Shown here piece by piece: positions 4,158 to 60,323 of a stretch of 60,323 nucleotides of DNA. The DNA lies in the IMG/VR virus record IMGVR_UViG_3300031555_003801, positions 128,001 to 188,323 of that record; one strand, written 5' to 3'. Made by a program: the position numbers and the translations under genes. The notes beneath the pieces are model-generated. The model worked only from the letters and a program-made list of their open reading frames with translations, was not told the origin of the DNA and did no database searches. The number at the start of each line of letters is the position of its first letter. Position 1 is the stretch's first letter. Origin of the DNA: a virus. Lineage: Duplodnaviria > Heunggongvirae > Uroviricota > Caudoviricetes.

Positions 4158-4171
4158 TAATTATCACTCCT

Positions 4172-5218: not shown

Positions 5219-5247
5219 TCATTTATACCTCCATTTTTCCTACTTAA

Positions 5248-5309: not shown

Positions 5310-5339
5310 AAATTATAATAAAAAGTTATGGGAGGAATT

Positions 5340-6654: not shown

Positions 6655-7409
6655 TGGATATAAAAGAATTTTGTCAATAGTGGAAAAATGAACTGCGGGA
6701 CAAAGCTAATGCGCTCGCAAAACCAAAGCATTTAGGAATTATAGGGCATAAAGATTTACCTTATGTAAAGGGAATTGTAAAAGACTGTACGCAAATCGGT
6801 ATTCATACAAAAGTTTATGATTATGAAGAAGATATTAATTTTGCGGACTATATGAAAATAGTATATTGTGCAGAACGATATAATGATTATATTATCCTGC
6901 AAACCCCACTCCCCCCTACAATTGATGTAGAAGAATTAAAAAAATGTATTGATCCGCAAAAAGATATTGATAATATAAGTGGTAAATCCAATCATTTTCA
7001 TAATACACCGCTTGGAATTATTAAATACTTAGATGCATGTAATTTCGATTATTGCGGCGCAGACGCAGTAATCATTGGTAGAAGTGATGTGGTTGGCAAA
7101 CCAATGGCGAAAATGCTTCTTGATAAGAATTGTACAGTAACAATTTGTCATAGTAAAACAGAATATTTAGCACATTATACTGAATGGGCAGATTTAGTAG
7201 TTGTTGCTGTTGGAAAACCAGAATGGTTTGATCCAGAATTAGCAAAAAGCGCAAAGATAATTATTGATGTAGGTATTAATTTTAAAGATGGCAAAATTGT
7301 TGGTGATGTTCAAAGTCAATACGGGAGCGAAGCGAACCGCATTACTCCTGTTCCTGGTGGAGTGGGATTACTTACAAGATGTGCATTATTGGAGCAAATT
7401 ATAAAATGA
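6654..7409 (+). CDS. folD: Methylenetetrahydrofolate dehydrogenase/cyclohydrolase; TAG=Gln at codon 9
   Basis: LQTPLP, KDID, IGRSDVVGKP, TVTICHSKT, IDVGIN, TPVPGGVG. The N-terminus is restored by reading TAG 6678-6680. Confidence 0.9.
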
Positions 7410-8590
7410 TAACGCAAGAAAAAATTGATAAATATAAATATATGAATAAAGCTTCTAATGGTATTATAATGATTAAACCTGAAGAAGATTTAAAAAAACA
7501 TGAAGATAATAAACAATATAGATCTTTAGAGGATGTATTATATAATATTGATGATATTGCTGATAATTGTGAAATAATTGGTATTGGGGTAGATCCGTAC
7601 TCTGGAGAAGTATTTAATACAGATGCTTTAGCTTATCCGCATTTAGTAGAAGTATTAAAATATATTGAAAAAAAATATATTAATATCCCAGTTGTAATTA
7701 GTGCTACAGTAGATTCTATTTTAAATTATGAACAAACTTATTATAATTTATCTTTAAATATTGATTTATATAATATTGATAATTTAAATGAATTAAAAAA
7801 TAAAATTTTACCAAATATTAATTGTTTTTATATACCTTATCCGCAAAATTCGCAAATTAATTTTGATGAATTAGATTTATTATATCCAAATATTTATTAT
7901 TTTTATTGTTGTGAAAAAAGAAATAAATATGAATATTTAGGATATATTGATGAAATGAATAAACGTAATAATATTATTTTTTCACAATTAGAAAATGTAT
8001 ATAAAGATGTATATTGTAAAATTATTAAAATAAATAATAAATAGGAAGTTTATTTTCATAATAATGATTTAATTATAGCAATAAATGATTTTATTAAAGT
8101 AATGAATAATAATATGTTATTGCAATATTTATATAATTTTGAAGGATGTTGTAATTTTAGAGTATTAAGAAATAATAAAGAAATGTTTGTTGAGTGTTTT
8201 AATAAAAAAGATTTTTTAAATAATATTCATTTAAGTAAACATCTTGTAGAGAATTATGATTTATTAAGAGAATTATCAAACTTATATAAGGATAATAGTT
8301 TAATTTTATATCCAGATTATAATTTAGATATATTAACAACTCAATTATTAAATTTAAATATATCAATTAAAACAGAAGCTATTATTACAAAAGATATATT
8401 TGAAGAAAAAAATATTACTTTAAAAGATTGTGAACAAGCTTTAGAAAAATATAGAAAACAATATCCAAATAAATTAATTAATATTTTATTTATTCCTACT
8501 AGAATTATTCAAAATATTTTAAATAATGAAAAAAATATTGACTTAGAAAAATTTCAACAAAAAACAATGACATTTATCGTGGGGTTTTAA
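7406..8590 (+). CDS. Hypothetical protein, possibly a degenerate radical SAM-like partner; one TAG=Gln
   Basis: 7379-8044 and 8102-8590 are in frame across TAG 8042-8044. ATGA overlap with folD. No CxxxCxxC; weak resemblance to the next gene. Confidence 0.6.
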
Positions 8591-8591
8591 T

Positions 8592-9965
8592 ATGAATAAT
8601 GAACAAATAAAAAAATATATTTCAATGAGAATGGCATTATGGGGTAATTTATTAACTTCTGATATTTGTGGTAATAAATGTTTATTTTGCAGTAATAATC
8701 ATAATCCTGAAGAAGTAAATGTTATTAAAGTTGGAAACCGTAAAAAAGAAGATTTATTTGATGAAATTAAATTTTTTCCAAAAAATATTAAACGTATTCA
8801 TATGGGTGAAACTACTTTTAATACTACTGAAGGAGATATTTTAGAATATCCATATTTTAAAGAATTAATTTTAGAAATAAAAAAACAAAGGCCTTCAGCA
8901 AAAATTATTTTAACAACTGGAGGAAATTCATTAACAGATGATGTTATATATTTCTTAAAAGAAAATAATATTTCATTAATTATTTCAATTCACTCTATTA
9001 ACCCTGAAATACGAGCAAAAATTACAGGAAATACATTAGAAAGAGCAAATATTGCTATTAATGGTTTAAAAAAATGTTTACAAGAAAAAATTAAAATTGA
9101 AGCAATTAGATTAGTACCAATGGCTTTTATGCCAAATGAAGATATTTACAATACTTTAAAATTTTTAATTGAAAATAATATTGAATGTGTTGATATATGG
9201 GTTGCATCTTTTTCAAAATTTGCAAAAAAAGAAGAAATTACAAATTTAAAAGATGAATGTGATAGAATTGCAAAAATTATTTTAACTTTAAAAGATATTT
9301 TTAAAATATCAAAATCTAATACTATAATTAGATTATATCCATTTGGAGATTTTAATAAAATTCAAAATGTTTTTTCAAATTCATATGCGGAAGATATAGG
9401 TTTACAAATTGGTGATGAAATTATAGAAATTAATAATACATTAATTATTAATGGAGATCACGCAATGAATTTATTATATAATACTATTTTTATTGAAAAA
9501 ATGATTGTTAAAAGAGATAATACTTTTATTTTATTAAAAAATTTAAATGGACCAATGATTGCAGAAAATATTTTTATTAATTGTATTGTTGAACATGGTA
9601 TTATTCAAGATATATATAATAATATTAAACAAGATATGACTCATTCTTTAGTAATTACTTCTGAAGCAAGTTATCCAATTATTAAACAATCTTTAGAACG
9701 TATGGGATTGTTTGAAAATAATAATATAAATTTAGTTTGTGCAAAAAATGAAAGTTTTGGAGGGAATATTTGTGTAAATGGTTTAATCACTATTGAAGAT
9801 TATTTAAAAACTTTAAATAAATATAGAGAAAAACATCCAAATACTCATATAACTAAAATTATTATTGCTTGTACTGGATTTAGAATGGGTAGAGAACGAG
9901 ATGTAACTGGTAGATCATTACAGGATTTGCGGACCGAGGGTTGCGTAGATGTTATATTAGTATAA
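8592..9965 (+). CDS. Radical SAM protein with PDZ-like and DUF512-like regions
   Basis: CGNKCLFC; GLQIGDEIIEINN (PDZ-like); NESFGGNICVNGLITIED (DUF512-like). Confidence 0.8.
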   Translation: MNNEQIKKYISMRMALWGNLLTSDICGNKCLFCSNNHNPEEVNVIKVGNRKKEDLFDEIKFFPKNIKRIHMGETTFNTTEGDILEYPYFKELILEIKKQRPSAKIILTTGGNSLTDDVIYFLKENNISLIISIHSINPEIRAKITGNTLERANIAINGLKKCLQEKIKIEAIRLVPMAFMPNEDIYNTLKFLIENNIECVDIWVASFSKFAKKEEITNLKDECDRIAKIILTLKDIFKISKSNTIIRLYPFGDFNKIQNVFSNSYAEDIGLQIGDEIIEINNTLIINGDHAMNLLYNTIFIEKMIVKRDNTFILLKNLNGPMIAENIFINCIVEHGIIQDIYNNIKQDMTHSLVITSEASYPIIKQSLERMGLFENNNINLVCAKNESFGGNICVNGLITIEDYLKTLNKYREKHPNTHITKIIIACTGFRMGRERDVTGRSLQDLRTEGCVDVILV

Positions 9966-9993
9966 AATAGAGTTCTATTGAACTCTATTTTTT
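9965..9993 (+). terminator. Intrinsic terminator
   Basis: AAAATAGAGTTC-TATT-GAACTCTATTTTTTT hairpin plus T tract. Confidence 0.8.
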
Positions 9994-10067
9994 TCGTTAT
10001 TTGAAATTGAAAATTGACTTGGTGGGAATTTCGTTATTTGAAATTGAAAATTGACTTGGTGGGAATT
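9994..10067. repeat. Perfect tandem duplication, 2 x 37 bp
   Basis: TCGTTATTTGAAATTGAAAATTGACTTGGTGGGAATT at 9994-10030 and 10031-10067. Confidence 0.9.
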
Positions 10068-10360
10068 GTTACGTGGGAAAACGATTTTAGAACATGCGTT
10101 CTTTAATGTCCCATAACACGGGCCCGGGCGTTTCCTAACAAGTCTATTGCAGGACTTCCTACAGGCTGTCAAATGATCAGCCTTTACACCCCTATCAGTT
10201 AGTCAACACTAATTACGCAATAAAAAAAATTTAAAAAAGTTGAAAAAAGTGCTTGAAATGTGTTTTCACCTGTGCTATAATTTAAAATGTAAAAAGGGAA
10301 CGGAGCCGTAAACAAAAGGCTCAAGGTTAAACGTTCCAAATACAGGAAGGTAGGTATAAA

Positions 10361-10654
10361 ATGAAGGCTATTATTATTAAGAGTTTTAAAAGTGATGATA
10401 CTTGTGTAGAAATTAAGCACCATGATTATAAAGTAGCATTGACAGAATTATGTCAGCTTATGGATTATGTGGGAAGTAATCACTATGGATTAAAAATTTA
10501 CTGCATAGACTCAAATGCTTGCAAATTCTATATTGACGGCACTGATATTGCAGACGCTACTAGCAAAATGCTGTTAGAAGAATACGGCGCGGAATGTATC
10601 CATAGTCATACCGAAGAAAATGGTCGCGTATGCATTGCAGAATTTGAATGGTAA
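10361..10654 (+). CDS. Hypothetical early protein
   Basis: ORF with RBS downstream of a TTGAAA..TATAAT promoter. Confidence 0.65.
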   Translation: MKAIIIKSFKSDDTCVEIKHHDYKVALTELCQLMDYVGSNHYGLKIYCIDSNACKFYIDGTDIADATSKMLLEEYGAECIHSHTEENGRVCIAEFEW

Positions 10655-10719
10655 ATAAAACTATAAGGCAAGGGGCTATAAAGTCCCTTGCCACTCCAAG
10701 AGAATAAGGAAAGAAATAG

Positions 10720-11046
10720 GTGAATATAATGATGAACTTTAAATACACAATCAAGAACGATATAGACGGCTTAAATATTGAGTTTGCGCTCCAATGGGCA
10801 GACTATGAAGAAGAAGAAAATATTATTGAAGAATTATGCACTCGCATAGCAGAGGCAGCAGATGCTTGTTACTGCAATGCATATGCAAGAGCAGATTATG
10901 ACGCTGTTGATATGTGCATACCACCAGACCAGGCGACTTTTGATGAAGTAATGTCTCTCATAGAGTTTGAGATTAAGGAATACGGCTTACAGTATAACAA
11001 GACACGCAAATATGCAGATACTTACATCTACGAGGTGGTAGCATAA
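10720..11046 (+). CDS. Hypothetical acidic early protein
   Basis: ORF with purine-rich RBS. Confidence 0.65.
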   Translation: MNIMMNFKYTIKNDIDGLNIEFALQWADYEEEENIIEELCTRIAEAADACYCNAYARADYDAVDMCIPPDQATFDEVMSLIEFEIKEYGLQYNKTRKYADTYIYEVVA

Positions 11047-11078
11047 GCTACCACCATAAGGAAAGAGAGGATAATATA

Positions 11079-11234
11079 ATGAAGATATTAAGCAGATTAT
11101 TCACTATTATAATGGTATTATTTTTGGTGTGGTTCGTGGCAAGCTATATGGACATAGTAATGCACAACCTTGATGACGAACCTATGTATAAAGCGTGGAA
11201 CTTATTTGAACTGTTAATCAATATGCGAGGATAA
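11079..11234 (+). CDS. Small membrane protein (paralog of 17691-17855)
   Basis: Hydrophobic N-terminus; shared P.Y.AWNLFE.L motif; GAGAGG RBS. Confidence 0.6.
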   Translation: MKILSRLFTIIMVLFLVWFVASYMDIVMHNLDDEPMYKAWNLFELLINMRG

Positions 11235-11239
11235 GAAAA

Positions 11240-11488
11240 ATGAACGAACTTGAAAAGATGTTGGAACATATAGCCAAAAGAGAGATAAGTGCGGTTGCCG
11301 AATATGCCGCATCCCATAACCTAAACATATGCGTGCGTGATGATGAGAGTGACTGGTTCTGGGAACATAGGCTTTGGCGAGCTTATCCCGAAACCTATTG
11401 GATAAAAGAAAAGATTGACGCTTTTAATGGCAGAGAAATAATTGACATATGGACTGAAAATAAAAGCATCTGCATTGAGGTGAAATAA
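11240..11488 (+). CDS. Hypothetical early protein
   Basis: ORF with GAGG RBS. Confidence 0.65.
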   Translation: MNELEKMLEHIAKREISAVAEYAASHNLNICVRDDESDWFWEHRLWRAYPETYWIKEKIDAFNGREIIDIWTENKSICIEVK

Positions 11489-11748
11489 TTTTTCGCCTCA
11501 ATTTTTTATATGCTTCCTTTGATTTGGGTGGGCCGCGGTGGGACGCCACGGCCCAAGTTGGCGTATAAAAGGGTGTTGCGGTTTTTATGATCACTTTAGT
11601 AGGTTAAAGCATTAACGCATTAAATCCTGAAAGTTACAGTATGATCCTTGTTAAATAATTAACAAAAAATTTTTTATAAAAAACCCTTGACAAATGTTTT
11701 CGGTAATGCTATAATAAGACATAACCAAAAGAAAGAGAGGAAAAGAAA

Positions 11749-11973
11749 ATGATGTATCAAATTATTATTAGAACAGCAAGCAATGAGTATGTAGAACAGC
11801 ACTATGGCTTAATTGAAAGCTTAAACAGAATGTTAGAAATTGCCAAATGTGACAATGTGGAAATAATTGACTGCATGTGTTGTGCTACTGGAGAAATAAT
11901 GGTTACTATTGAATGGGAAGTGGTAACCTATGTAGCAACTGAAACAATTGAAAGATTTTATGAAGAAATGTAA
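11749..11973 (+). CDS. Hypothetical early protein
   Basis: Directly after a TTGACA..TATAAT promoter and RBS. Confidence 0.65.
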   Translation: MMYQIIIRTASNEYVEQHYGLIESLNRMLEIAKCDNVEIIDCMCCATGEIMVTIEWEVVTYVATETIERFYEEM

Positions 11974-11983
11974 AAAAAATTAA

Positions 11984-12021
11984 AAAAGGTGCTTGACAAC
12001 AAGCACCTTTTGTGTTATACT
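11984..12021 (+). promoter_or_regulatory. Sigma-A promoter embedded in an inverted repeat
   Basis: AAAAGGTGCTTG-ACAA-CAAGCACCTTTT contains TTGACA 11993-11998; TATACT 12016-12021. Confidence 0.8.
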
Positions 12022-12053
12022 TAAACCATAGAAAGGAAAGAGAGGTAAATAAA

Positions 12054-12236
12054 ATGAAAACAGTACAGATTGAATACGAAACAATTAGTCCAGCAGTATT
12101 AGAAACAATTATCGTAAAGGCTTTCCCAGGTGCTATGTGCTATTGGAAAGACATCAACGAAGACTATTTCGAGTTTACAGTATTTGGAGTTTTAGACCTG
12201 GCAATGCTTGAAGATGTAATTGCTGAATTTATGTAA
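12054..12236 (+). CDS. Hypothetical early protein
   Basis: ATG after GAGAGG. Confidence 0.65.
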   Translation: MKTVQIEYETISPAVLETIIVKAFPGAMCYWKDINEDYFEFTVFGVLDLAMLEDVIAEFM

Positions 12237-12273
12237 AAAAGGGGTTGACAAAACCCCTTTTATCGTGTATAAT
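12237..12273 (+). promoter_or_regulatory. Sigma-A promoter embedded in an inverted repeat
   Basis: AAAAGGGGTTGACAAAACCCCTTTT then TATAAT 12268-12273 (17-bp spacer). Confidence 0.8.
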
Positions 12274-12304
12274 AAAGATACAAAGAACGAAAGGAGAAAA
12301 GAAA

Positions 12305-12439
12305 ATGAGAAAGATTAGTCCAGAAGAAAGAGAAATGTTAATCGTAGCAGAAAACTTTGGTTGCGTGGCAGAGGTCATTGCGGAACTGGGTATCACAGCC
12401 GAAGAAGCGAGAGAAATAATTTGGGGCGAGGAGGAATAA
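12305..12439 (+). CDS. Small acidic early protein
   Basis: ATG after AAGGAG. Confidence 0.55.
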   Translation: MRKISPEEREMLIVAENFGCVAEVIAELGITAEEAREIIWGEEE

Positions 12440-12782
12440 GAAATGATTAAAATAAAACACTTACCAACATGTTTTATTCTTGAATGTATTGAGAAGAGAG
12501 GAGACACCGCAAAACACTTGTTCGGTCGAATTTGGTGGCATCCCGAAGGAAAATTTTTCATAATTGGAGATAAAAGGCCTACAAAGTAGGTCTTTTAATT
12601 TTGGCCGGCCGCGCGCGAGTGTTGCGGCCGGAATTTCACGCATTAAAGTGCTACAGCAAAAAAGTGTTAAAAAAATAACAAAAAAATTTTCAAAAAAAGT
12701 TTCCCGAAACCTATTGACATTTCTCTTGAAGTATGGTATATTATAATTATAAAAGGGAGCAGAGAAGAAAGGAAGTAAAAAA

Positions 12783-13265
12783 ATGATGAACAAAGAAGTA
12801 GTAAAGGCAATGAACAAGAAAGAAACAAAGACAAGTACAATCCGCAAATGGTGGAATAAGAACGGCTATAAGGTAATGAGAGTTATCCTTTTCCCTATTT
12901 GGTGGGGCATTAAGGCAGAGGAAAAAATCGAAGCACATCTCAATTCCAAGTGTGAATGGAGCGAAGAAAGAGCAGACGAAATTCTTAATTATTACATTCC
13001 TCGCCATGCTGAATGGGATGCAGAAGAAAAAGAATTTTACTTTGCAGACAACGGAATGGGCTGGGGTATGAAGTGCCACAATAAGAAAATCAAAATCAAA
13101 GACCGCAGATGGTGGAGAATACACACAGACCGTTGGGGTGGTGAAGTGAGAGATTACCTCATCAACAAGTTTGAACTTGAAGGCTTTACAAAGGAAGTTG
13201 GCGACTGCTATAACGGTTGGACAGAAATAATTTTCAGAATGATTGAAAATGGGGTTGACAAATAA
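12783..13265 (+). CDS. Hypothetical early protein (Trp-rich)
   Basis: ORF after consensus promoter and AGAAAGGA RBS. Confidence 0.7.
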   Translation: MMNKEVVKAMNKKETKTSTIRKWWNKNGYKVMRVILFPIWWGIKAEEKIEAHLNSKCEWSEERADEILNYYIPRHAEWDAEEKEFYFADNGMGWGMKCHNKKIKIKDRRWWRIHTDRWGGEVRDYLINKFELEGFTKEVGDCYNGWTEIIFRMIENGVDK

Positions 13266-13283
13266 TCAACCCCATGATATAAT
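13249..13283 (+). promoter_or_regulatory. Sigma-A promoter embedded in an inverted repeat
   Basis: ATGGGGTTGA-CAAATAA-TCAACCCCAT; TTGACA 13255-13260, TATAAT 13278-13283. Confidence 0.8.
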
Positions 13284-13312
13284 AAAAGAAAATAAGAAAG
13301 GAATACAAAATT

Positions 13313-13999
13313 ATGAAAATTACAATGTTTGCAACAATGCCGGAAATTAGAATGTTCTGTGCAGAAAGTGGTTATCCATTCCACGATGTAAATTTAGCTC
13401 AAATTTATGCTTTATACGAAATTGCCGGTTGGCGCAGAGCTATGATTGCAGAACACCTCGGCTATGCAGTCTCAACAGTATCTCGTAAAAGACATGACAT
13501 GTGGGATTTTGCATACCTTGCAGAATTACTTTTTACTGACATTCCAATAGTAGAAGAAGAAAAAGAAGAAGAAAAAAAAGAGGAAATCATTCTTGAACCA
13601 ACAACTCTTTATCGTAGATTTAGAGACGGCAGACCTGCGGTAGCTATGGAATTTATGCCGAAATGCGGACCAAACATCAAGAATGAGCAAGCAGTTTATT
13701 TCTTTAAATTCTATAATCCAAATAGTTTAGAATTTAATAAAATCGGCACTTCAACAAGAGATGTGGTGGCAAGATTAAGAGATGAAATTGGCGACTATTC
13801 AAAAAAGTTTGACATTGCAAGAGTTGAAATTCATCGAATCGTAAGTTGTGGTTGTAATCCCGCAGAGGGGGCAGAAAGTGCGTTAAGAGCAGAACTTATT
13901 CAGCAATACCCAACAGCCTTCCGCAAAAATGACAGGTTCTTTGGGGTTGACATTTCACCCGATGTATTTGATGAAATTATAGCCAAATATTTTATTTAA
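13313..13999 (+). CDS. HTH plus T5orf172/GIY-YIG-like domain protein
   Basis: IAEHLGYAVSTVSR (HTH); VYFFK...KIGTSTRDVVARL...AESALR. Confidence 0.6.
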   Translation: MKITMFATMPEIRMFCAESGYPFHDVNLAQIYALYEIAGWRRAMIAEHLGYAVSTVSRKRHDMWDFAYLAELLFTDIPIVEEEKEEEKKEEIILEPTTLYRRFRDGRPAVAMEFMPKCGPNIKNEQAVYFFKFYNPNSLEFNKIGTSTRDVVARLRDEIGDYSKKFDIARVEIHRIVSCGCNPAEGAESALRAELIQQYPTAFRKNDRFFGVDISPDVFDEIIAKYFI

Positions 14000-14224
14000 A
14001 ATAGGATTGAAAAATCCTATTTTTTTATTCTTTTTTTGTTTGGCGGCGCGCTGGCGATTGTAGCGCGCCGAGTTTCGCGTGTTAAATGTGTAGCACTTTT
14101 ATTCGTTAAAGCGCTTGCTTTCACACGGTAAAGTATTAAATCCTGAAAGTATTGTACTAAAATAAAAACATAATTATTTTTAAAAAAACTATTGACTTTT
14201 TCCATATTTGTGGTATACTATAAT

Positions 14225-46289: not shown

Positions 46290-46357
46290 TTGATTTTTTA
46301 TTAAAAAAGTGTTATAATATATTATAAGATAAAAATAAAATGTGGGGAGAGATGCGA

Positions 46358-47326
46358 ATGAAGGTATTGAGTTATAATGATACGCAGCTTTTTAAACAAA
46401 TTGCCTCAATGGAAGAAAAAGTCTTATTAAAAACATTAGGCACTTTTTTAGAAAAAAGATATGATAAAGTAATTAAGTCAGATAAGTATCTATGCGCGGA
46501 AGGTAATATTCCTATTGCTCTTGTCGCGCATTTAGATACTGTTTTTACTTCACCGCCAGATAATATCTATTACGATGAAAAAGCTGGTATTATGTGGAGT
46601 CCAGAAGGATTAGGAGCTGATGATAGAGCCGGTGTATATGCAATTTTAAAAATTATTAGAGCTGGATATAAACCGCATATTATTTTTACTACTGGTGAAG
46701 AAATCGGTGGCAAGGGCGCACAAGCATTAGCCGCAGATTATCCTATGGGCCCTTTCGAAGATATTAAATATATCATTGAACTTGATCGGCAGGGAAAAAA
46801 TGATTGCGTATTCTATAATTGTAATAATATTCCATTCGTAGAATATGTTGAATCTTTTGGATTTCTTGAAGAATGGGGAACATTCTCTGATATTAGTGTA
46901 CTTTGTCCTTATTGGGGAATTGCCGGAGTTAATCTTTCTATTGGATATAAGAATGAACATACCTATATTGAAACATTAAACATCAACGTTGTATTACAAA
47001 CAATTAAAAGAGTAATAAACATGCTCGAAGATGTTGATAATGTTGAGCAGTTTGAATATATTCCTACATATAAGAGTAGATTTAGTTATATGTGGAATGA
47101 TTATTTATCTGATGAAATTATGAAGTGCGATCATTGCGGACGGGAATTTTTTGAATTTGAATTAGTTCCTGTTAAATCTCGCTCTGGTGGTACTAAATTT
47201 TATTGTCCAGATTGTATTGCTTCTTCAAATATTGCTTGGTGCAGTACCTGCTTTGAAGCATACGAAGTAGAAGGCGATGTAAATAATAGCTTAGAATGTT
47301 ATGACTGTAGAAAGATGAGGGACTAA
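46358..47326 (+). CDS. M20/M28-family zinc peptidase with C-terminal Zn fingers
   Basis: VAHLDTV, GLGADDRAG, GEEIG, ELDR, GYKNEH. Confidence 0.85.
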   Translation: MKVLSYNDTQLFKQIASMEEKVLLKTLGTFLEKRYDKVIKSDKYLCAEGNIPIALVAHLDTVFTSPPDNIYYDEKAGIMWSPEGLGADDRAGVYAILKIIRAGYKPHIIFTTGEEIGGKGAQALAADYPMGPFEDIKYIIELDRQGKNDCVFYNCNNIPFVEYVESFGFLEEWGTFSDISVLCPYWGIAGVNLSIGYKNEHTYIETLNINVVLQTIKRVINMLEDVDNVEQFEYIPTYKSRFSYMWNDYLSDEIMKCDHCGREFFEFELVPVKSRSGGTKFYCPDCIASSNIAWCSTCFEAYEVEGDVNNSLECYDCRKMRD

Positions 47327-48679: not shown

Positions 48680-48751
48680 TGGCGAAGGCCATTTTTAAAA
48701 AATCTTTTGCCAGAATTTTTCATATATAATTAGAAAGAGGTGAAAAATTTT

Positions 48752-49474
48752 ATGGGTAAAAGACTTGATTTAACAAATCAAAAATTTGGAAGATTAATAG
48801 CATTAGAAAAAGCTCCTAATAAAAATAATAGAACAAGATGGAAATGTTAGTGTGAATGTGGTAAAGAAATAGTCGTTGATACGGCAGATTTACGAAGAGG
48901 TCATACTATTTCTTGTGGATGTTTTTAGAAAGAACAAACTTCAAAAAGTTCATTAAAAGATTTAACTGGAAAATATTTTGGATTTTTAGAAGTTTTAGAA
49001 AGAGATATGAATTTTTATGGAAAACAAATTCCTTCTCATTGGATTTGTTTATGCCATAAATGTAATGAAATTAAATCTATTAGTTCTACTTCATTAAATA
49101 ATGGAACTATTTCTTGTGGTTGCCAAAAATCAAAAGGTGAATTTAAAATTATGGAATTATTAAAAGAAAATTCTATAAGTTTTATTAGTGAGTATAAATT
49201 TTTAGATTATAAAAATAGAAGATTTGATTTTGCTATTTTAGATGAAAATAATAAAGTTATTAGACTAATTGAATTTGATGGAATTTAGCATTATTATAGA
49301 CCTAAGGCTAATCACTGGTCTGCAAATTCTACTTTAGAAGAAACTCAAAAGAGAGATAAAGAAAAAAATGAAATTGCTAAACAATACAATATTCCTTTAG
49401 TTAGAATACCTTATTGGCATCTAAATGATATAACTATTGATATGTTGTTAAATGATGATAAATATATAGTTTAA
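48752..49474 (+). CDS. Free-standing homing-type endonuclease (Zn repeats plus DUF559/Vsr-like nuclease); three TAG=Gln
   Basis: DLTNQKFGRL...WKC(Q)CECG...SCGC; FDFAI...IEFDGI(Q)H...RDKEKN...LVRIPYW. Confidence 0.85.
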
Positions 49475-49775: not shown

Positions 49776-49863
49776 GATAATATTTTTAGGGAAAATGTTT
49801 TTGACTTTCCCATTTTTTTTTGATATAATATTTATATAAAATACGAGAAAAAGGAGTTTATAA

Positions 49864-50718
49864 ATGGATAATTATAGTATTGATTTATTTGCTAGATTAG
49901 ATGATTTTAGATTTTTTTATGATAACGATAATATTTATTGTCATTATTTATTATTATTATTTGTAAATGAAATTTTTGTAGAAAATGAAAAAAGTGATGA
50001 AATTTATTTATCTTTACAAGAAAATTTAAAAATAACAATTGATGCAATATTAAATTTTAATAATTTTAATTTAGACGCACCATTTGATGAAACAAAAATA
50101 AATTATGATAATTTTGATATGACTAATATCAAAGATTTATTAAAATTATTAAATGATATTAATTCTGTTTTAAATAAACAAGAAAATTATTTTTTAAGAC
50201 ATCCAATAATTATTAGTCAATTAAATAAAATTTTAGAATATTTTAATACTTTAGAAATTGATTCTAAAACTTTTCCAAAATCTAATAATGTTCATGATAG
50301 TCATAATGATAAAATGATTGAAATAGTTAAAGAATGTAAACAAGATTATTTAAATGAAGGGCAAGAGAAGAATCAAGATATTGATTTTATTGCCTCATTT
50401 TTATCTGAATTAGAAAATAATGAAGTAATTATAGAAGAAGATAAAGAAGAACATAAAACATTAAATTTAATTAATGCTATGAAAGAACATATTTATAAAA
50501 CTGAATCTATTGAAACATTAAAAAATAATAATGAAGAAATAAAAATTTATGATAATATTATTGTTGTACCAGAAAATAAATATAAATGTTCAAAATGTGG
50601 TATTTCAACTTGGAATAATAAACCTATTACTCTTTTAGTAAAATATAGAGATAATAATAAAGATAATATTAATTTAGAAAATTTATATTTTGTTTGTCCT
50701 AATTGTAATTTATCATAA
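49864..50718 (+). CDS. Protein with degenerate HNH-like Zn-binding C-terminus
   Basis: YKCSKCGISTWNNKPITL...NLENLYFVCPNC, lacking the catalytic His residues. Confidence 0.6.
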   Translation: MDNYSIDLFARLDDFRFFYDNDNIYCHYLLLLFVNEIFVENEKSDEIYLSLQENLKITIDAILNFNNFNLDAPFDETKINYDNFDMTNIKDLLKLLNDINSVLNKQENYFLRHPIIISQLNKILEYFNTLEIDSKTFPKSNNVHDSHNDKMIEIVKECKQDYLNEGQEKNQDIDFIASFLSELENNEVIIEEDKEEHKTLNLINAMKEHIYKTESIETLKNNNEEIKIYDNIIVVPENKYKCSKCGISTWNNKPITLLVKYRDNNKDNINLENLYFVCPNCNLS

Positions 50719-52541: not shown

Positions 52542-52826
52542 ATGATTAATATTAATAATATTGAATATAATAATGTTAAAGATATATCGTATGAAATTTC
52601 GTTAACACCTAATTTTAAAGCTTATATTTTTATATCTTTTAATGAAGATGAAAATATAGATAATTTATTTGATATTTTTTCAAAATATAGATATTAGAAT
52701 ATAAAAATATTAAGTGATGAATTACCATTATCTTTATATTATATTCAAGGAGTCTTTTTAGAAAAAAATAATAATAAAATAATTTTTTTATTAGGAAAGG
52801 AAAAAAATATAAATGAAACAAATTGA
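52542..52826 (+). CDS. Hypothetical protein; one TAG=Gln
   Basis: GGGGGA RBS; open to TGA 52824 if TAG is sense; overlaps the next start. Confidence 0.55.
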
Positions 52827-53175
52827 ATTAATTTTATCTAATGGAGAAACAAAAGTATATAATTTTGATAATAAAAATTTTTTCATTAGAAAAAATGTAA
52901 CTCTTATTAATCCAGGTGATACTGAGCTTGGACGCGAATGGACTTTCAGATGTCTTGATACTGGTGAAGAAAAAAATGATTTTTTAACTTTCACTGAAGA
53001 AATTATAAAATTAATTTTAGTTAATAATATTACTATTGAAAAAATTAATATTATTTTAAATAGTAATCAATATACTTATGAAAGAGAAGAACTTTCAGAA
53101 GTATATTGTAGAGATTTATATGAACAGAAAGATAATATTGAAACTTTTGAATTTACTATTAAATTAAAAGAATAA
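52813..53175 (+). CDS. Hypothetical protein
   Basis: AAGGA RBS. Confidence 0.65.
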   Translation: MKQIELILSNGETKVYNFDNKNFFIRKNVTLINPGDTELGREWTFRCLDTGEEKNDFLTFTEEIIKLILVNNITIEKINIILNSNQYTYEREELSEVYCRDLYEQKDNIETFEFTIKLKE

Positions 53176-53192
53176 TATAAAAGGAGGTAAAA

Positions 53193-53858
53193 ATGAATTA
53201 GGGAGATAAAATTTTTGCAAATACCCCTTCATCAGGCTCTCCTCTAGGATTCAATACACTATTTGCTAGACTTGAAAATTTAAGATAGACTCATTATAAT
53301 GCTGGCACTTAGATAAATAAATCTAGCATTTCTTCTCCTTTTTCAACAACTGTTGCTTCAGCAGGAAATAAAATTACACAAGCAAATATACAACAATTAC
53401 AAACTAATTTAAATACTTTAAAACGTTCTACTTGGTATTAGACTTGGGCAACATATGGATATAGTACCAGTGATACTTATGTACCTACACAAAGTTTATC
53501 TTCATAGGCGAATTTTACTATACCTAGTGCAGGAGCTTTAATAAAAGCAACAGATTTTAATACATTAGATTCTTAGTTAAAAACTCTTGAAGGTATATGT
53601 CCAGTTTATAGTGGTAAATATACTGTTGCTTATTCTGATGCTTATTTTGGTTTCTATTGGAACGAATATAGCGCACAATATACTTCACAATATAATGGAC
53701 AATATAGTTCACAATATAATGGACAATATAGTTCACAATATAATGGAAATTATGGTTCTAGATATAGTTCACAATACAGTGGAAATTATGGTTCTAGATA
53801 TGGCGCTTATAGTGATAAATATAGTAATAGATATTCATTTGCTTATGAAAAAACATAA
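53193..53858 (+). CDS. 221-aa protein with C-terminal (Y-x-x-x)21 repeat; candidate radical SAM substrate or virion protein; six TAG=Gln
   Basis: Perfect AAGGAGG RBS; open to TAA 53856 under code 15; next RBS overlaps the stop. Confidence 0.85.
53607..53855 (+). repeat. 12/24-bp coding tandem repeat (e.g. CAATATAGTTCACAATATAATGGA)
   Basis: Encodes YSSQ/YNGQ/YGSR units. Confidence 0.9.
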
Positions 53859-53873
53859 GGAGAAAAATAATAT

Positions 53874-55310
53874 ATGTATTCAATTGAACATTTAAATATT
53901 ATAACTTCATCTTTTTGCGATTTAAAATGTTCTTATTGTTTTTTACATAAAAATAGAAGTTTTAGACAATATGATAAATGGATTATTGAGTCTTGGAAAG
54001 ATGGAACATATGTATAGAACATAAAAAAAGTTTTTGAAAAATTAAATTGCGATCCAAAAGAAGTTACAGATCTTTCTTTTTGGGGTGGAGAACCTTTTAT
54101 TCATATTGATAAAATAATTGATGGAATGATAGAACTTATTAAATTTTGTCCAGATATACAAGGCATTGTTGTTCCTACTAACTGGGTTCATACAAATATA
54201 TCTGATTTATGTCAATTATTACAAGTAATTAATGATAATATAACTCCAAGAAAAGAAAATAATCTTTTGCATTTCCATGTTCAAATGTCTATCGATGGTA
54301 CTGAAGGAGATATATTTATTCAAGATGGTCATACTGCAAGTTGGAAATAGTATCATCGTAATTGTTATGAATTATATGAACAATTAGAAGAAATGTATTT
54401 ACCAAATATTTCAGTACATTTTTGTGTAAGTAGTACAGGAACTCAAAAAAATTTTCTTAAACATTTTTCTAATTTAGATAATATAAAAAAACATATTAAC
54501 TTTTGGGATAAAGAAATTCGTCAATTAATTGAAACTACTAAGAATGCAAAGAATCCTTCTATATTTGTTAATTCTATGATAAATTTTCCAACAATTGCAA
54601 CTCCACAAGAAACATCTTCTACAGAAGGAATGGAAATTGTAAAATTAATTAAAGTAATTGAACAAACTTTATATACAGAAAATGCTTTTCGTAGAACAAA
54701 TGATTAGATTATGAGATTATTTTATAACCATGAATTAGATTGGCCTTTATGTAAATCAAATCATGAATGTCCTGAAGCTTCTTAGAGAGCTGTTACAATT
54801 ATTCCAGATGGAACAATTTGTTAGTGTCCAGATGGATGGATTGAACATACTGAAAAATTTCAAAATGAATTTTTAGAAGAAAAAGACTATAAAAAATATA
54901 AAAAAATGTTAATTGCTAGTCATTAGTTTTATAATCCTTTAACAGCAACTGAAAAAGAGACTGCTGATCATAAATGGTATGATATTATGGGAGGTTTTAA
55001 AGACACTTATTTTCCGTATATTTCTTTAGGATATGCAATGTGTCAAGAATTAGCATTATCTCATCAATTAGATGAAGTATATGTAAAAAGTCCGGAGTTA
55101 TTATATGTTCATTTTATTTCTTCTGGAATGATTAATGAATGTTTTAAAACGTCTTGTTAGGTTACAAGTTTTCCTTATTTATCTGGATAGGATATTATTA
55201 GAAGATGGTTAAATGGTTATTCTCAAACTGCTTATAATTATCATTTAGAAGATTTAAAATGGACTATTAAAGAAAGTATTAGTGATAAAATTCAAAGATT
55301 GGAAGAATAA
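53874..55310 (+). CDS. Radical SAM protein (478 aa) with Cys-containing SPASM/twitch-like region; multiple TAG=Gln
   Basis: CDLKCSYC, FWGGEP, MSIDG, C...IIPDGTIC(Q)C. Joins track fragments 54126-54350 and 54393-54707. Confidence 0.88.
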
Positions 55311-55315
55311 ATTTT

Positions 55316-56569
55316 ATGATATCAGTAAAAGAACAAGATATTTTATTAATTAATGATATATTAAATCGTAATTATTATTATTATTATAAAAAAGGAAATA
55401 CAAAAAATATATCAATTTCTTTTTATAATAATAATGATTATAATAATAGTATATTTATTAAAGAACAAGAAATAAATAATGATATAAATAAAATTATTAA
55501 TAATTTTATATTATTTTTAAATTGGTATAATAATAATAATTTTATTTGCGATTTATATATAGAAGATGATAATTGGTTTTTTAATGATATTTTAAAAGAA
55601 AAAGTTTTTACTTTACTATCTGAAAATTTTTCAGATAGTAAAGTAAATAAAATTATTAATTTTACTTTTGAAATAGAAAAATTAAAAGACCAAGATTTGA
55701 TTTTTTTAGAAGAAAAAATTAAAGAATTTAAATTATATAATTTAGATATAAAAATTAATTTTAATCTTGAAATATCTAAATCTACTCAATGTAATATACA
55801 TAATTTTTTATCATTTTGTAAAGAATATAATTTAAATATTTATAATAGAATTACTCCAGAAAATATAATAGATCAAAAGAATTTCTTTAAGTTTTTAATT
55901 CAAACAATTCCTTATTCTCAAATTCAAATAATTGAACAAGAAAGTGAATTATGGAATGAAGAAAATATTGATATTTATATAGATTTTATAAATTTTTATA
56001 TTGATTATTTTATTCAATTAAAACAAGACAATTTTATAAATTTTTTATTAAATGAAAATTCTATTATTTCTTTGAAAGATAAAGGAATAATAAATAATAC
56101 AGGAACTTGTAAACAAAATTGTAATTTGCATAAAAATTTACATATTATTTTAAATGATTTATCTTTAACAATGTGTAAAAAAATTCAATATGATGATTTA
56201 ACTATAGGATTTTTTGAAGTTGAAAATAATATTATTACTAAATGTATTCCAAATAATATTTCAGCTTTAATTGTATGCGCTCATTCAAAACATAATATGA
56301 CACCTCAATGTGAATATTGTTTTTATATGCCTTTATGTCCAGGTTTTTGTCATGGAGATGCTTATTATAAAGTTTTAAATCCATTAATTCCAATTAGAGA
56401 AACCTGTCAATTAAAAAGAGCTAAATATTCTTTTTTAATATATAAAATATTAAAATTAAATTTATCCGAAAAAATAAAAAATGAAATAACAGAAGAATCT
56501 TATAAACAATATTTTTCTATTTTATGTAATAATTTAATAAATAGTTCACAAACAGGGGGTTTAGTATGA
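55316..56569 (+). CDS. SPASM-domain protein lacking the radical SAM CxxxCxxC motif
   Basis: C-terminal CKQNC...MCKK...IG...CEYC...LCPGFCHG...TC; no N-terminal Cys triad. Confidence 0.75.
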   Translation: MISVKEQDILLINDILNRNYYYYYKKGNTKNISISFYNNNDYNNSIFIKEQEINNDINKIINNFILFLNWYNNNNFICDLYIEDDNWFFNDILKEKVFTLLSENFSDSKVNKIINFTFEIEKLKDQDLIFLEEKIKEFKLYNLDIKINFNLEISKSTQCNIHNFLSFCKEYNLNIYNRITPENIIDQKNFFKFLIQTIPYSQIQIIEQESELWNEENIDIYIDFINFYIDYFIQLKQDNFINFLLNENSIISLKDKGIINNTGTCKQNCNLHKNLHIILNDLSLTMCKKIQYDDLTIGFFEVENNIITKCIPNNISALIVCAHSKHNMTPQCEYCFYMPLCPGFCHGDAYYKVLNPLIPIRETCQLKRAKYSFLIYKILKLNLSEKIKNEITEESYKQYFSILCNNLINSSQTGGLV

Positions 56570-56976
56570 GAGAGTATCCAAATTATACAATGATAAATTT
56601 TTTAATATCAAATACAAAAAATACTTTTCCTCTATTTAATAATGCTGAAGAAGCATTAGAATATTTAAAAATATTAACAAATGAAAATTTTATGTATGAT
56701 AATTCTTTTAATTATGATGCAATTAATTATGAATAGTTAATATATATTGAACAAAATTTTTCAGATAATCAAGAAATAGAAGAAAAATTAAATAAAATAA
56801 AAAAACAAATTTCTGATAATTTTATTTTTAAAAATAAATATTTACAAAGAATTTCTTCTCCAATTATTGATTTGGATCAAGAAAAAAGAATATGTAGTGT
56901 TCACTCAGAAATTCATTTACCTGAAGAATATATAAAAGTATTTCGTGAAAAAGTTAAAGGGGCATATAATATATGA
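56566..56976 (+). CDS. Hypothetical protein; one TAG=Gln
   Basis: ATGA overlaps at both ends under code 15. Confidence 0.7.
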
Positions 56977-57791
56977 CAAAAAAACGGTTATTTGAAATTC
57001 CTTACAATTTTGATATAAAATTAATAGAAAGTTTAAAAATTTTTGATCCAGAAGGATTAACAATTGCTTGTATTTATATACCTCCATTTTATGAAGATTA
57101 TGAAACAATTTTAAGAGGGCATGAATCAAATTTACTTATAAATATATTAACAAGAGATGAATATGAAAAACATATTCATCTCATTAATAGTATGTTTCCA
57201 AATAAATTACAATTATTATTACAAAAACAAGAGCAAATAATGTCAAAAGAAAAATTACAATACTATATAAATTTAGGTTTTTCTAATTTTTGCGTAGGAA
57301 ATTTAGAACAAGCAAAAATTATTAAAAATATTGATTCTAATTTTATTGTAGTTGGTTCTATTTCAATGCGATTAACATTAAAAGAAATAAATAATAATCA
57401 TAATTATGAAAATTATTTTGATTATATAGTTTTACATTTTCCTTTTTGTAGAAATTTAAATGAAATAAAACAATTAACAAAAAAATATAAATATATCTTA
57501 TTAGTAAATGCTTATTGTCATGCTCATTGCGATGGAAAACATCATTGGGAAAGAGAATATAAAACAGAAAATAGTTATTGTCCAGGAAGATTAGGTGGAA
57601 ATTTATTAAAATGGAAATATGCTACAAGAATTAGACCAATGGATTTAGATTTATTTTCTCCATATATAGAAATATTTAAAATACAAGATAGAGGGTGGCC
57701 AACTAGAGATATTTTAAGAGATTATATATTATATTCTAGTGATTATTCTTATTATCCAGAAATAAATTATACAGAAAGGATTTATAATTAA
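56973..57791 (+). CDS. Peptidase-U32-like Fe-S protein
   Basis: LLVNAYCHAHC...H...CP...IRPMDL...FKIQDR pattern. Confidence 0.6.
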   Translation: MTKKRLFEIPYNFDIKLIESLKIFDPEGLTIACIYIPPFYEDYETILRGHESNLLINILTRDEYEKHIHLINSMFPNKLQLLLQKQEQIMSKEKLQYYINLGFSNFCVGNLEQAKIIKNIDSNFIVVGSISMRLTLKEINNNHNYENYFDYIVLHFPFCRNLNEIKQLTKKYKYILLVNAYCHAHCDGKHHWEREYKTENSYCPGRLGGNLLKWKYATRIRPMDLDLFSPYIEIFKIQDRGWPTRDILRDYILYSSDYSYYPEINYTERIYN

Positions 57792-59071
57792 TGAAATATT
57801 CATTTTTAATTGCTATAACTAATAATTGTAATTTAAATTGTAGCGGATGTGCCTGGATGTGTAGTAATATAAATGAAGAAAATAAGTGGTTTATTCCTAA
57901 AAAGGAATTTGAAAATAATTTAAAAATTTTAAAAGAAAAATTACCAAATTTAGATGCAATTGATATTACAGGCGGAGAAACTTTAATACATCCAGATTTT
58001 ATGGATTTAATGGATATATTAATTTCTTTTAAAGAAAAAACTTCACATTTAGTTTGGACGAATGGTTTATTATTAGATAAAATATCAGATGAAGATTTAA
58101 TTAAATTATATAATAATAATATTTATTTTTAGATTGCTATTTATCCTGGAATTTTATAGTATTAGGAAAATTAGAAAAAACGATTTAAAAAATTAAAATT
58201 AAATATACATAGCAATGGTATGCGAATTTTCTTTAATAAACCTAGATATAATTTAAATGGCCATATGGATATAGAAGAACAATTTAAAACATGTGAATAT
58301 TTTCATGAACCATATCAATTTATTTTATATAAAAATAAAATTTATTGTTGCCCAACCGAACCCCATATGATTGAAAACTTAAATTTACCAGATGATCCAA
58401 AATGTTATATAAATATCAGTGACTTAAAAAGTGAAGAAGATTTAATGAAATTAGTTTCAGAAGGCCATAATATATGTAAATATTGTAGAGATAAAAATAT
58501 GGGAAATGATGTTTTTCCATGGTCTGCTGGAAATTTTAAAAATAAAAATTATAATTTTAAATCATTAAAAGATTTATATCTATATAATTATGATGAATAT
58601 TTTAATTTACTTAATGATATTAATTCAATTAAATCAATTTCTGAAATTTTAACAAATGCTAATAAATATATTTAGTATATGGGAAGACATCGTGGAAATG
58701 ATTTTTATGCAATTAGAAATTATTATAAAAAAATATTTGGAACTTTAGATATAATTATTCCTTTTTCTGATAAAATAGATAATAAACAAATAAATAAAAT
58801 TAAAGAAATATTAAAAATAAAAAATCGTAATATTAATATGTATTTTATTAGTATAAAAGAAAATAATATAAATATAGAAAATCAAATTTATAATTTATTT
58901 AGACCTGGTAATATGAATCAAAATAATATTTTCTTTTTAAAAACAGAAAATATTACTTTAGAAGAAATAGTAAATAAATATACTTTTAGTAAATATATTT
59001 ATTATTTACCTTTAGATAATAATCAAAATAATGATTATAAAATTATAAAAAGGAGAAAAATAAATGAATAA
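57791..59071 (+). CDS. Radical SAM protein (426 aa) with twitch-like region and extra C-terminal domain; TAG=Gln
   Basis: CNLNCSGC, TGGETLIHP, WTNG; three track fragments in one frame joined only by TAGs. Confidence 0.88.
58736..59050 (+). repeat. 315-bp direct repeat, copy 1
   Basis: Appears identical by eye to 60009-60323 (offset 1273 bp). Confidence 0.9.
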
Positions 59072-60323
59072 TAGTAAATATTCATTTTTAGTAATTATTA
59101 ATACAAAATGTAATTTAAATTGTACTGGCTGTTCTGTTTTATGTTCTACAAAAAACGAAGGGTGGTCTATTTCTAAAGAAGAATTTGAAAATAATATAAA
59201 AATTTTAAAAGAAAAATTACCAAATTTAAGAACAATTGATATTACCGGTGGAGAAACTTTAATACATCCAGATTTTATGGATTTAATGGATATATTAATT
59301 AAATATAATAATACAGCAGCACATACTCAAGTTTGGACAAATGGTTTATTATTAGATAAAATATCAGATGACAATTTAATTAAATTATATAATAATAATA
59401 TTTATTTTCAAAAATCTCTTTATCCAATTTTCCTTGAAAAACATGAAGAATAGGATGAACGTTTTAAAAAATTAAATATTCCATTAAGAGTTTCAGGATT
59501 AAGATTATTTTTTAATAGATTTTTATATAGTAAATTTATTAAACAAGATTATTTATAGGCTTTTAAAAATTGCAGACATTTTAATGAGAAACCATATCAA
59601 TTTATTTTATATAAAAATAAAATTTATTCTTGTTGCACTCTTCCTTATATGATGGAATACTTAAATCTTGAAGAAAATCCAAAATCATATATAAATATAA
59701 ATGATTTAAAAAGTGAAGAAGATTTAATGAAATTAATTTCAGAACCGCTTGAAGATTGTCAATATTGTATCAATGGAAGAGATGATTTTGATAATTTTCC
59801 CTGGCATCCTGAAGTATATCCATATAATTTTACTAAAACTTTACAAGAATTATTTTTATTTGATTATAAAAAATATCATGATTTAAATCATAATGAAATT
59901 GTATTAAATTATTTTCCTTTATTATTAAAAACAGGAAAGTATTTTAAATTTTTAGGCCGAATGAATGGAAATGACTGGTTTAAAATTAAGCCTTATAATA
60001 ATCGTTTTTTTGGAACTTTAGATATAATTATTCCTTTTTCTGATAAAATAGATAATAAACAAATAAATAAAATTAAAGAAATATTAAAAATAAAAAATCG
60101 TAATATTAATATGTATTTTATTAGTATAAAAGAAAATAATATAAATATAGAAAATCAAATTTATAATTTATTTAGACCTGGTAATATGAATCAAAATAAT
60201 ATTTTCTTTTTAAAAACAGAAAATATTACTTTAGAAGAAATAGTAAATAAATATACTTTTAGTAAATATATTTATTATTTACCTTTAGATAATAATCAAA
60301 ATAATGATTATAAAATTATAAAA
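59064..60323 (+). CDS. Radical SAM protein, tandem paralog of 57791-59071, runs off the right end; TAG=Gln
   Basis: CNLNCTGC, TGGETLIHP; continues past TAG 59451. Confidence 0.88.
60009..60323 (+). repeat. 315-bp direct repeat, copy 2
   Basis: Appears identical by eye to 58736-59050; ends at the window edge. Confidence 0.9.

Follow-up and report, generated by a model that had tools for sequence, protein, structure and literature searches.

Uniform action on short motifs that recur along a protein (WPR, TVGG, and HxS) is known for several radical SAM enzymes, which work together with small chaperone proteins (PMC11851443, PMC9062424, PMC13128918). WPR motifs are modified with the small chaperone WprC (PMC11851443), and TVGG repeats are modified by TvgB (PMC11002830). 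Triceptides carry aromatic-x-x units cross-linked from residue i to residue i+2, with Tyr-Asp links made by YxdB, Tyr-Arg links by YhhB, and Phe-Ser links by MscB (PMC11002830). The cyclophane links introduced by radical SAM/SPASM enzymes are typically to C3 of the tyrosine (PMC10114670). Tyrosine is also the key residue of the Xaa-Tyr-Gly splice motif in spliceotides (PMC11002830). Here, we describe a phage protein of 221 amino acids ending in 21 tyrosine-initiated units, the gene of which is followed directly by that of a dedicated radical SAM enzyme. Genes for a modified peptide on a large phage of Bacillota are known from the sublancin cluster of the Bacillus prophage SPbeta; sublancin is a glycocin, and its enzymes and precursor are unrelated to the repeat module presented here.

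The stretch of DNA analysed (60,323 nucleotides, hereafter the window) makes up the final 60 kb of a 188,323-bp IMG/VR record (IMGVR_UViG_3300031555_003801), which has terminal repeats and is rated as 100% complete by CheckV. The phage is a large one of gut type. Its large terminase shares 50-52% identity with the counterparts in Enterococcus phages H1, VRE9_4, and EF1 and in Geobacillus virus E3, and 61% with that of a human faecal phage fragment. It also gives YonF-type matches, from which we take the terminase to be related to the SPbeta group. The host is probably a low-GC member of Bacillota.

The 221-aa protein (P0001) is encoded at window positions 53193-53858 on the plus strand, with TAG read as Gln and TAA as the stop codon. 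The translation matches exactly the sequence quoted in a preliminary description of this DNA, which was made from the letters alone and had called the protein hidden. The label is fair, since translation table 11 gives no open reading frame of at least 25 aa in the true frame, and the sole long table-11 reading frame at the locus is an out-of-frame artefact of the repeat. All six TAG codons (codons 3, 32, 40, 83, 105, and 128) precede the tail, as had been stated. The gene is present as a single copy, with no second copy in its own genome. Its features are as follows.

53180..53187, plus strand: Shine-Dalgarno-like aaaggagg, 5 nt upstream of the ATG, read from the sequence
53193..53606, plus strand: N-terminal domain, residues 1-138, a triplicated three-helix bundle (AF2, hhalign, 77 relatives)
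53199, 53286, 53310, 53439, 53505, 53574, plus strand: in-frame TAG codons
53607..53855, plus strand: tail, residues 139-221 (83 aa), 21 Y-x-x-x units; putative multi-site core
about 53665..53801, plus strand: DNA tandem repeat with a 24-bp unit, about 93% alike (Tandem Repeats Finder, 12/24/36/48-bp periods)

The reading of TAG as Gln is supported by comparisons with related sequences. TAG codons 32 and 40 align with CAA-encoded Gln in the homologue of locus L001, and Q40 is invariant in an alignment of seven homologues. The L001 homologue in turn has TAG at positions within its tail where the window has CAA. It carries three such in-tail TAG codons, so the placement of all TAG codons before the repeat is not a rule of the family. 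In proteins shared with Enterococcus phage H1, the residue opposite 54 TAG positions is Gln in 10 cases, followed by E (7), N (7), and K (5). Coverage of the genome by open reading frames of at least 100 aa amounts to 58% under table 11 versus 84% with TAG as a sense codon. The genome encodes 20 tRNAs, including one with the anticodon CUA, plus a tmRNA, and a release-factor-like gene is located at window positions 5328-6392. The whole operon would need suppression of TAG by the phage for its translation. The CUA tRNA has a long variable arm, which is odd for a Gln tRNA. Ser, Leu, and Tyr were considered as readings of TAG on account of this arm, and the alignments favour Gln.

The 21 tyrosines of the 83-residue tail are spaced by four residues 16 times, once by three, and again by four three times, so that 19 of the 20 intervals measure exactly four residues. 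In 100,000 shuffles that preserved the composition of the tail, 19 spacings of four were never reached. The tyrosine period spans positions 53607-53849, whereas the DNA repeat is confined to about 53665-53801. The periodicity thus extends past the recognisable repeat, which bears out the earlier remark that it outlasts the repetition of the DNA. The closest homologue (P0002, 96% identical) equals P0001 minus one 8-residue (24-bp) unit, indicating that the repeat number varies by slippage. When P0001 was aligned with six closer homologues (about 42-96% identity), every aligned Tyr column was invariant, and the non-Tyr positions of the tail were just 18-43% identical between subclades. Within one subclade, the N-terminal domains share 84-89% identity versus 52-64% for the non-Tyr tail positions. 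Selection on the aromatic position, put forward in the preliminary description as selection on the spacing of tyrosines, is supported by the exact retention of this position while the spacers drift, but neither Tyr nor the period of four is kept in distant relatives. What these alignments show to be conserved is a regular succession of aromatic rings with small polar residues in between, and not Tyr at period four itself. Two positions after the tyrosine (+2), 15 of the 21 units of P0001 have S, D, N, A, V, F, or K, and the other six have Gly. Across the family, tails with Tyr have mostly Ser, Asn, Asp, Thr, or Ala at +2 (Gly 16%), and tails with Phe have Ser in 44%. Tyr-Gly units account for three of the 21 in P0001 and for 22% family-wide. 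The residue preceding each Tyr is almost always long and polar (Q, R, K, or N).

The N-terminal domain could be modelled with AlphaFold from 66 sequences (pLDDT 84, pTM 0.81); a model of the full 221-aa protein from only seven sequences was unusable (pLDDT 41). The model of the domain comprises helices at residues 20-35, 63-77, and 119-133, each preceded by an extended segment. Three copies of a G-x-x-I-x-A...N-x-L motif had been noticed in this part of the protein. Profile-profile alignment (hhalign) places the three segments in register with probabilities of 60-77%, which confirms an internal triplication, and each copy corresponds to one extended-segment-plus-helix unit of the model. The domain ends in a conserved E-x-I-C-P-x-Y-S junction with a near-universal Cys136. 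A Foldseek search of the domain against the PDB returned nothing at E <= 0.001, and a profile search of the PDB gave no convincing relative. The wide VIA-align search found generic helical bundles (best Z 6.9), and an atlas of predicted structures returned viral hypothetical clusters only, with TM scores of 0.53-0.59. P0001 matched no family in Pfam, PHROGs, or NCBIfam, and neither P0001 nor any of the 66 members gave a match to a leader family such as NHLP or Nif11 (NCBIfam/Pfam, E <= 0.01).

A word-indexed search found seven homologues with 35-96% identity, and an exhaustive HMM search with the N-terminal domain against 1.84 billion representatives yielded 77 cluster representatives at E < 1e-3, with lengths of 41-341 aa apart from one 615-aa repeat protein. 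The full-length members share a common plan, in which an N-terminal domain of about 120-135 residues leads, via a junction where a Cys is near-universal (E-x-I-C-P-x-Y-S or C-A-N-C-S), to a low-complexity tail of periodic aromatic residues. The tail is hypervariable and rich in S, N, and G. The commonest aromatic spacing is four in 29, three in 17, and nine in six of the 66 members, and Phe takes the place of Tyr in about half of them. Homologues lacking the tyrosine periodicity had been named as evidence that would speak against the protein; among the 66 members, aromatic periodicity is kept throughout, but Tyr and the period of four are not universal. Five of the 66 representatives have a Hint/intein-type domain straight after the tail, and locus L015 provides a further example. 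In view of the known chemistry of Hint domains, this arrangement suggests that the C-terminal end of the tail could be released by self-cleavage in some lineages. Searches with tblastn (P0001, P0056, and the 478-aa enzyme described below) found no relatives in 50,697 GenBank phages, and megablast of the module gave no match. A scan of IMG/VR with the alignment of close homologues confirmed no relative, and single-protein scans of IMG/VR returned the already known contig plus one weak low-complexity match and nothing else. Our literature searches found no description of the family. On these comparisons, the protein belongs to a real, conserved, and previously undescribed phage protein family.

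The gene for the 221-aa protein sits in a tightly packed run of co-oriented genes. The cluster and the associated genes elsewhere in the genome are listed below; the last three entries carry coordinates of the whole genome, the others of the window.

46340-47326: M28-like peptidase gene, conserved upstream in L001 and L002
50740-51504, plus strand: FkbM-family methyltransferase, conserved in the close clade and L014-L016
51522-52496, plus strand: 324-aa enzyme of the radical SAM/SPASM type, with the same conservation as the methyltransferase
52542..53175, plus strand: pair of small genes for 94 and 120 aa, immediately preceding the 221-aa gene
53874..55310, plus strand: dedicated radical SAM enzyme, 478 aa, with CDLKCSYC, GGEP, and eight TAG codons, starting 15 nt after the stop of the 221-aa gene
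55316..56569, plus strand: SPASM-domain partner, 417 aa, with C-x2-C-x5-C-x3-C kept and CxxxCxxC lost
56566-57791, plus strand: proteins of 136 aa and 272 aa
57791-60323, plus strand: two tandem radical SAM paralogues, the second running off the contig end
134-1709 of the genome, just past the contig junction: two further cluster homologues
8944-9672 of the genome, past the contig junction: ThiF-family E1-like enzyme, 101 bits (cut-off 28.1)
12217-14004 of the genome, past the contig junction: YcaO, PF02624, 104.5 bits (cut-off 25.7)

This neighbourhood recurs in relatives. An orthologue of the 478-aa enzyme lies directly 3' of the repeat gene in each of the 12 loci for which downstream DNA exists; nine are independent loci found via the repeat protein, and three were picked via the enzyme. 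The relatives with a repeat gene followed by the orthologue are L001-L007 and L009, and the gene after it encodes the SPASM partner wherever the DNA reaches far enough. The linkage holds across three genetic codes, namely TAG=Gln, TGA=Trp (L003 and L007), and the standard code (L009), and down to 23% protein identity. The association is reciprocal: the family of the 478-aa enzyme is closed, comprising 41 clusters that all score E < 1e-131 with nothing else down to 1e-3, and the three loci chosen via the enzyme all have a gene for an N-terminal domain plus aromatic tail directly upstream. In L014-L016, the YcaO, the FkbM methyltransferase, and the 324-aa enzyme are located inside the cluster, and ThiF-like and further radical SAM genes also occur in the clusters of relatives. 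Such a linkage is guilt by association, and it would also fit a structural protein that becomes modified.

As for the enzymes themselves, six orthologues of the 478-aa enzyme agree fully in CDLKCSYC (residues 15-22) and GGEP. The 478-aa enzyme scores 23.7 bits against PF13353 (above the cut-off of 22) and 23.1 bits against PF04055 (below the cut-off of 29.5). Its resemblance to known peptide maturases is confined to the generic core of radical SAM enzymes, with scores far under every curated cut-off, and our searches found no solved relative beyond that core. In the 417-aa partner, seven Cys are invariant in six orthologues, and TIGR04085 is matched at 17.7 bits, under the cut-off of 27. Its orthologues in L007 and L009 retain CxxxCxxC, suggesting that the clade of the window lost the motif secondarily. 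The radical SAM cores of the cluster contain CxxxCxxC with matches to Pfam PF04055/PF13353, and the 324-aa enzyme gives a full-length but weak match to the PapB model. The two small genes upstream have positional analogues of 79-148 aa in most loci, with barely detectable sequence similarity; their products are possible chaperone or recognition proteins. A U32-like assignment of the 272-aa protein was dropped, as Pfam, NCBIfam, and PHROG gave no support at E <= 0.05. The YcaO and ThiF genes are interleaved with the tRNA array, and the YcaO gene is about 14 kb from the module, beyond the array and the contig junction. Sigma-70-like sites were no more numerous than in shuffled sequences; one strong promoter-like site at 49801-49829 may start the operon. 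No plus-strand terminator was found in the 49.5-60.3 kb region. We identified no exporter, leader peptidase, or RiPP recognition element belonging to a known type.

Among the described systems, triceptides (XncB, OscB, MscB/Fxs, YxdB, and YhhB) are comparable in having a radical SAM/SPASM enzyme beside a precursor with repeated aromatic-x-x motifs, with Tyr, Phe, His, and Trp each found at the key position. The Ser at +2 in the Phe tails (44%) reproduces the F-x-S arrangement of the Phe-Ser link made by MscB, and Tyr-x-Asp, Tyr-x-Asn, and Tyr-x-Ser units are present in the phage tails (PMC11002830). Unlike triceptide precursors, however, the phage-borne protein has 221 residues, a folded 138-aa domain, and 21 units, six of them with Gly at +2, and the 478-aa enzyme scores 21.4 bits against the YhhB model NF041707 (cut-off 445) and 12.3 bits against the FxsB model TIGR04269 (cut-off 370), with only the N-terminal core aligning. 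Proteusins of the polytheonamide type and spliceotides (PlpA/PlpX/PlpY) share with the locus a large leader, a long core, several radical SAM enzymes with a methyltransferase, and the pairing of an active radical SAM enzyme with an accessory protein. In contrast to proteusins, the phage family lacks an NHLP or Nif11 leader (no NCBIfam match among 66 members), and in contrast to spliceotides, Tyr-Gly is scarce in P0001, and the presence of Phe for Tyr in about half of the family is at odds with tyramine excision.

The WprA/B/C, TvgA/B, and HxsA-D systems resemble the pathway proposed below in that a single enzyme works on all copies of a short motif. WprC is a required accessory protein of about 100 aa without similarity to PqqD (PMC11851443), comparable to the small proteins encoded upstream here, and the Hxs system pairs two radical SAM proteins. 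These systems are bacterial, with other motifs and enzymes and without a significant sequence relationship to the phage proteins; the phage protein has no HxS repeats, and the HxsB/HxsC models match only the radical SAM cores of the other cluster enzymes, at 26-31 bits against cut-offs of 268-370. A YcaO and a ThiF-family enzyme, located in the cluster in relatives, recall TOMM-type pathways, as do tails rich in Ser, Thr, and Cys, e.g., the YSTC units in L014. The YcaO nevertheless scores 43.8 bits against the SagD-family cut-off of 219, no dehydrogenase was identified, and the gene is distant from the module in this genome. By sequence, the phage enzymes fall into none of the curated maturase families, and the system is neither a triceptide nor a proteusin RiPP.

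A conserved N-terminal domain, a fast-varying tail, one exactly conserved residue type per unit, reciprocal linkage to a dedicated radical SAM pair irrespective of the genetic code, and the presence of tailoring enzymes together follow the logic of a RiPP precursor with a multi-site core. We consider the protein most likely a substrate of a dedicated pathway centred on radical SAM enzymes. With moderate confidence, we further propose that it is the precursor of a RiPP-like phage pathway, with a leader-like domain and a multi-site core modified at each aromatic unit much as in triceptides or proteusins. The preliminary description had offered either a leader or a virion-attachment domain for the N-terminus; the leader is the better supported of the two, given the conserved domain, the hypervariable tail, and the enzyme linkage, and virion attachment found no positive evidence. 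A folded "leader" of 138 residues with a core of 83 residues is large for a RiPP.

In the proposed pathway, the three-helix domain would serve as the handle by which the enzymes hold the precursor, as a leader does, and the tail would be the multi-site core. The 478-aa enzyme and its SPASM partner would abstract a hydrogen at each aromatic unit and thereby bring about a local covalent change, for which a cyclophane-type C-C cross-link between ring and side chain, repeated up to 21 times, appears the likeliest candidate. Further changes might be introduced by the second radical SAM/SPASM enzyme, the FkbM methyltransferase, the two additional radical SAM paralogues, the ThiF-like enzyme, and the YcaO, for example azolines on the abundant Ser, Thr, or Cys. 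Since Gly occupies +2 in six of the 21 units of P0001, a uniform i to i+2 cross-link at the C-beta could not cover every unit. The long polar residue before nearly every Tyr makes a -1/+3 link an alternative that would fit all units. The interchange of Tyr and Phe suggests that the ring or the backbone matters and not the hydroxyl group; this counts against a shared step that yields DOPA, dityrosine ethers, or O-linked groups, and likewise against the excision of tyramine. The chemistry is therefore likely to take place at the aromatic ring or the backbone rather than at the phenol.

The strongest competitor is a structural protein of the virion, with the N-terminal domain anchored to the particle and the tail forming a fibre or an adhesive tip that the radical SAM enzymes may weld, so that the product stays in the virion as a protein. 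As to modification, this overlaps with the precursor reading, and the difference is in the role. Periodic low-complexity tails are typical of fibrous proteins, and a TAG-rich gene must be translated when suppression is on, which would suit such a role. Single members among the 66 also gave weak matches to the collagen-like-repeat preface domain NF033172 (E 0.002) and to gp37_trimer (E 0.009), and Fibritin appeared at E 0.17 in the PDB profile search. These matches are at chance level for 66 queries; we took the NF033172 match, which was seen for a single member and for none on the genome studied here, as such and set it aside. The genome location argues against a fibre as well. The terminase-to-tail block, syntenic with Enterococcus phage H1, occupies about 107-131 kb of the genome on the minus strand, whereas the repeat module lies about 50 kb away on the plus strand, among enzymes and homing endonucleases rather than structural genes. 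Moreover, no structural family of PHROG or Pfam matches the protein, and the model of its N-terminal domain shows a single chain folded into a self-contained three-helix bundle rather than anything readily recognised as a module for trimerisation. We thus consider a virion fibre unlikely.

The precursor might instead act as a scaffold releasing many copies of a small Tyr-derived molecule or a short cross-linked peptide, in the manner of mycofactocin/PQQ or of WprA cut by WprP, which would be a sub-case of the precursor reading. In favour of this, the precursor consists of a run of units of identical type, the L001 cluster includes glycosyltransferase-like and PIG-L genes, and both L001 and L002 keep the M28-like peptidase gene upstream. 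A precursor made of repeats that is cleaved uniformly also has a precedent (PMC12957482). However, the peptidase gene is set apart by 6 kb on the upstream side, with two homing endonuclease genes in between, and the distant loci do not have it. There is also no conserved cleavage motif between the units, the sequences of which are not uniform. We judge release of this kind to be quite improbable.

An unmodified tail, suggested earlier as a Tyr ladder or a prion-like domain, would act as a FUS-like phase-separating or amyloid scaffold with an incidental or regulatory link to the radical SAM enzymes, and the tail does have a composition (S 20%, Y 12%, N 11%, G 10%, and F 9% when pooled over the family) that we take to resemble prion-like and SYGQ-rich low-complexity domains, as well as a pLDDT of about 30 in the full-length AF2 model, but the strict linkage to dedicated enzymes across all 12 loci and three codes, the exactly kept aromatic position amid drifting spacers, and the Hint autoprocessing domains, which point to processing chemistry, make it very unlikely.

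Returning to the precursor with a multi-site core, we tentatively envisage a protein-sized class of product that has not been described, although we hold this extended picture to be somewhat doubtful. A three-helix leader of a new fold would present about 10-30 aromatic units, each to be stapled covalently by the dedicated, very divergent radical SAM pair and tailored by the YcaO, the methyltransferase, and others, into a rigid aromatic "ladder" polymer for late infection, e.g., against competitors or host defences, with the Hint variants adding self-cleavage at the end of the tail.

The recoding of TAG accounts for the failure of standard gene callers to detect the 221-aa gene. If the tail is modified as proposed, the locus would represent a phage-borne RiPP-like pathway with a new leader fold and an unusually long, repetitive core. 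It would also imply an enzyme family without a characterised relative and the commitment of a large share of a 188-kb genome to the pathway, and phages with alternative genetic codes would count as a further source of modified peptides and new radical SAM chemistry.

Two genes resembling HNH or homing endonucleases separate the block of the M28-like peptidase from the modification cluster, and a close relative carrying the repeat gene (L001) has other genes at this spot:
window 48707-49474, HNH/homing-endonuclease-like gene
window 49864-50718, HNH/homing-endonuclease-like gene

At the other end, the modification cluster extends over the contig junction into the start of the whole record (G000), outside the window, where an array of 20 tRNAs and a tmRNA lie in among its genes:
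G000 134-14004, two cluster-protein homologues (one with weak similarity to glycosyltransferases), a ThiF-family enzyme, two proteins weakly resembling HipA_C, and a YcaO protein

The two ends of the contig overlap by 117 bp (G000 1-117). This overlap falls within the tandem radical SAM duplication (window 57791-60323), and the first 40 bases of G000 are found again at 186933 and 188206. Assembly effects may explain both the "direct terminal repeat" and the number of tandem radical SAM paralogues.

An amber-suppressor tRNA with the anticodon CUA, 91 nt in length, lies at G000 11061-11151 (genome coordinates, outside the window). Its long variable arm and the A-C mismatch atop the acceptor stem give it a build resembling Ser, Leu or Tyr tRNAs more closely than a Gln tRNA. 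Despite this un-Gln-like build, the alignments indicate that TAG is read as Gln. A release-factor-like gene, with a gene for a phage sigma factor beside it, possibly belongs to the recoding machinery:
window 5328-6392, minus strand, release-factor-like gene with RF-1 domain matches in PHROG
window 4172-5218, minus strand, phage sigma factor gene

The SPASM partner (window 55316-56569) has lost the radical SAM motif CxxxCxxC in the window's clade and carries an Asn-rich stretch in its place. Since the motif is intact in the SPASM partner of the Phe-tail lineages (L007:12197-13612 and L009:11963-13405), it follows that two radical SAM enzymes were active in the ancestral module. The first of these lineages, the 175-kb phage L007 (IMGVR_UViG_3300028048_000052), reads TGA as Trp, with five in-frame TGAs within its SPASM partner gene; it was listed as standard code in the look-up because its repeat-protein gene has none.

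The repeat proteins of several relatives (P0008, P0010, P0011, P0015, P0019 and L015:5019-5990) bear a Hint/intein-type domain that adjoins the end of the aromatic tail, starting with Cys and ending with His-Asn, followed by a stub of 5–9 residues. Because only one member has a nucleophile at the +1 position, cleavage rather than splicing seems likely. The tail of L014:5362-5988 consists of Y-S-T-C and Y-x-x-C units, and a YcaO protein is encoded in the same cluster, making this the member of the family in which azoline-type chemistry on a tail would most clearly make sense.
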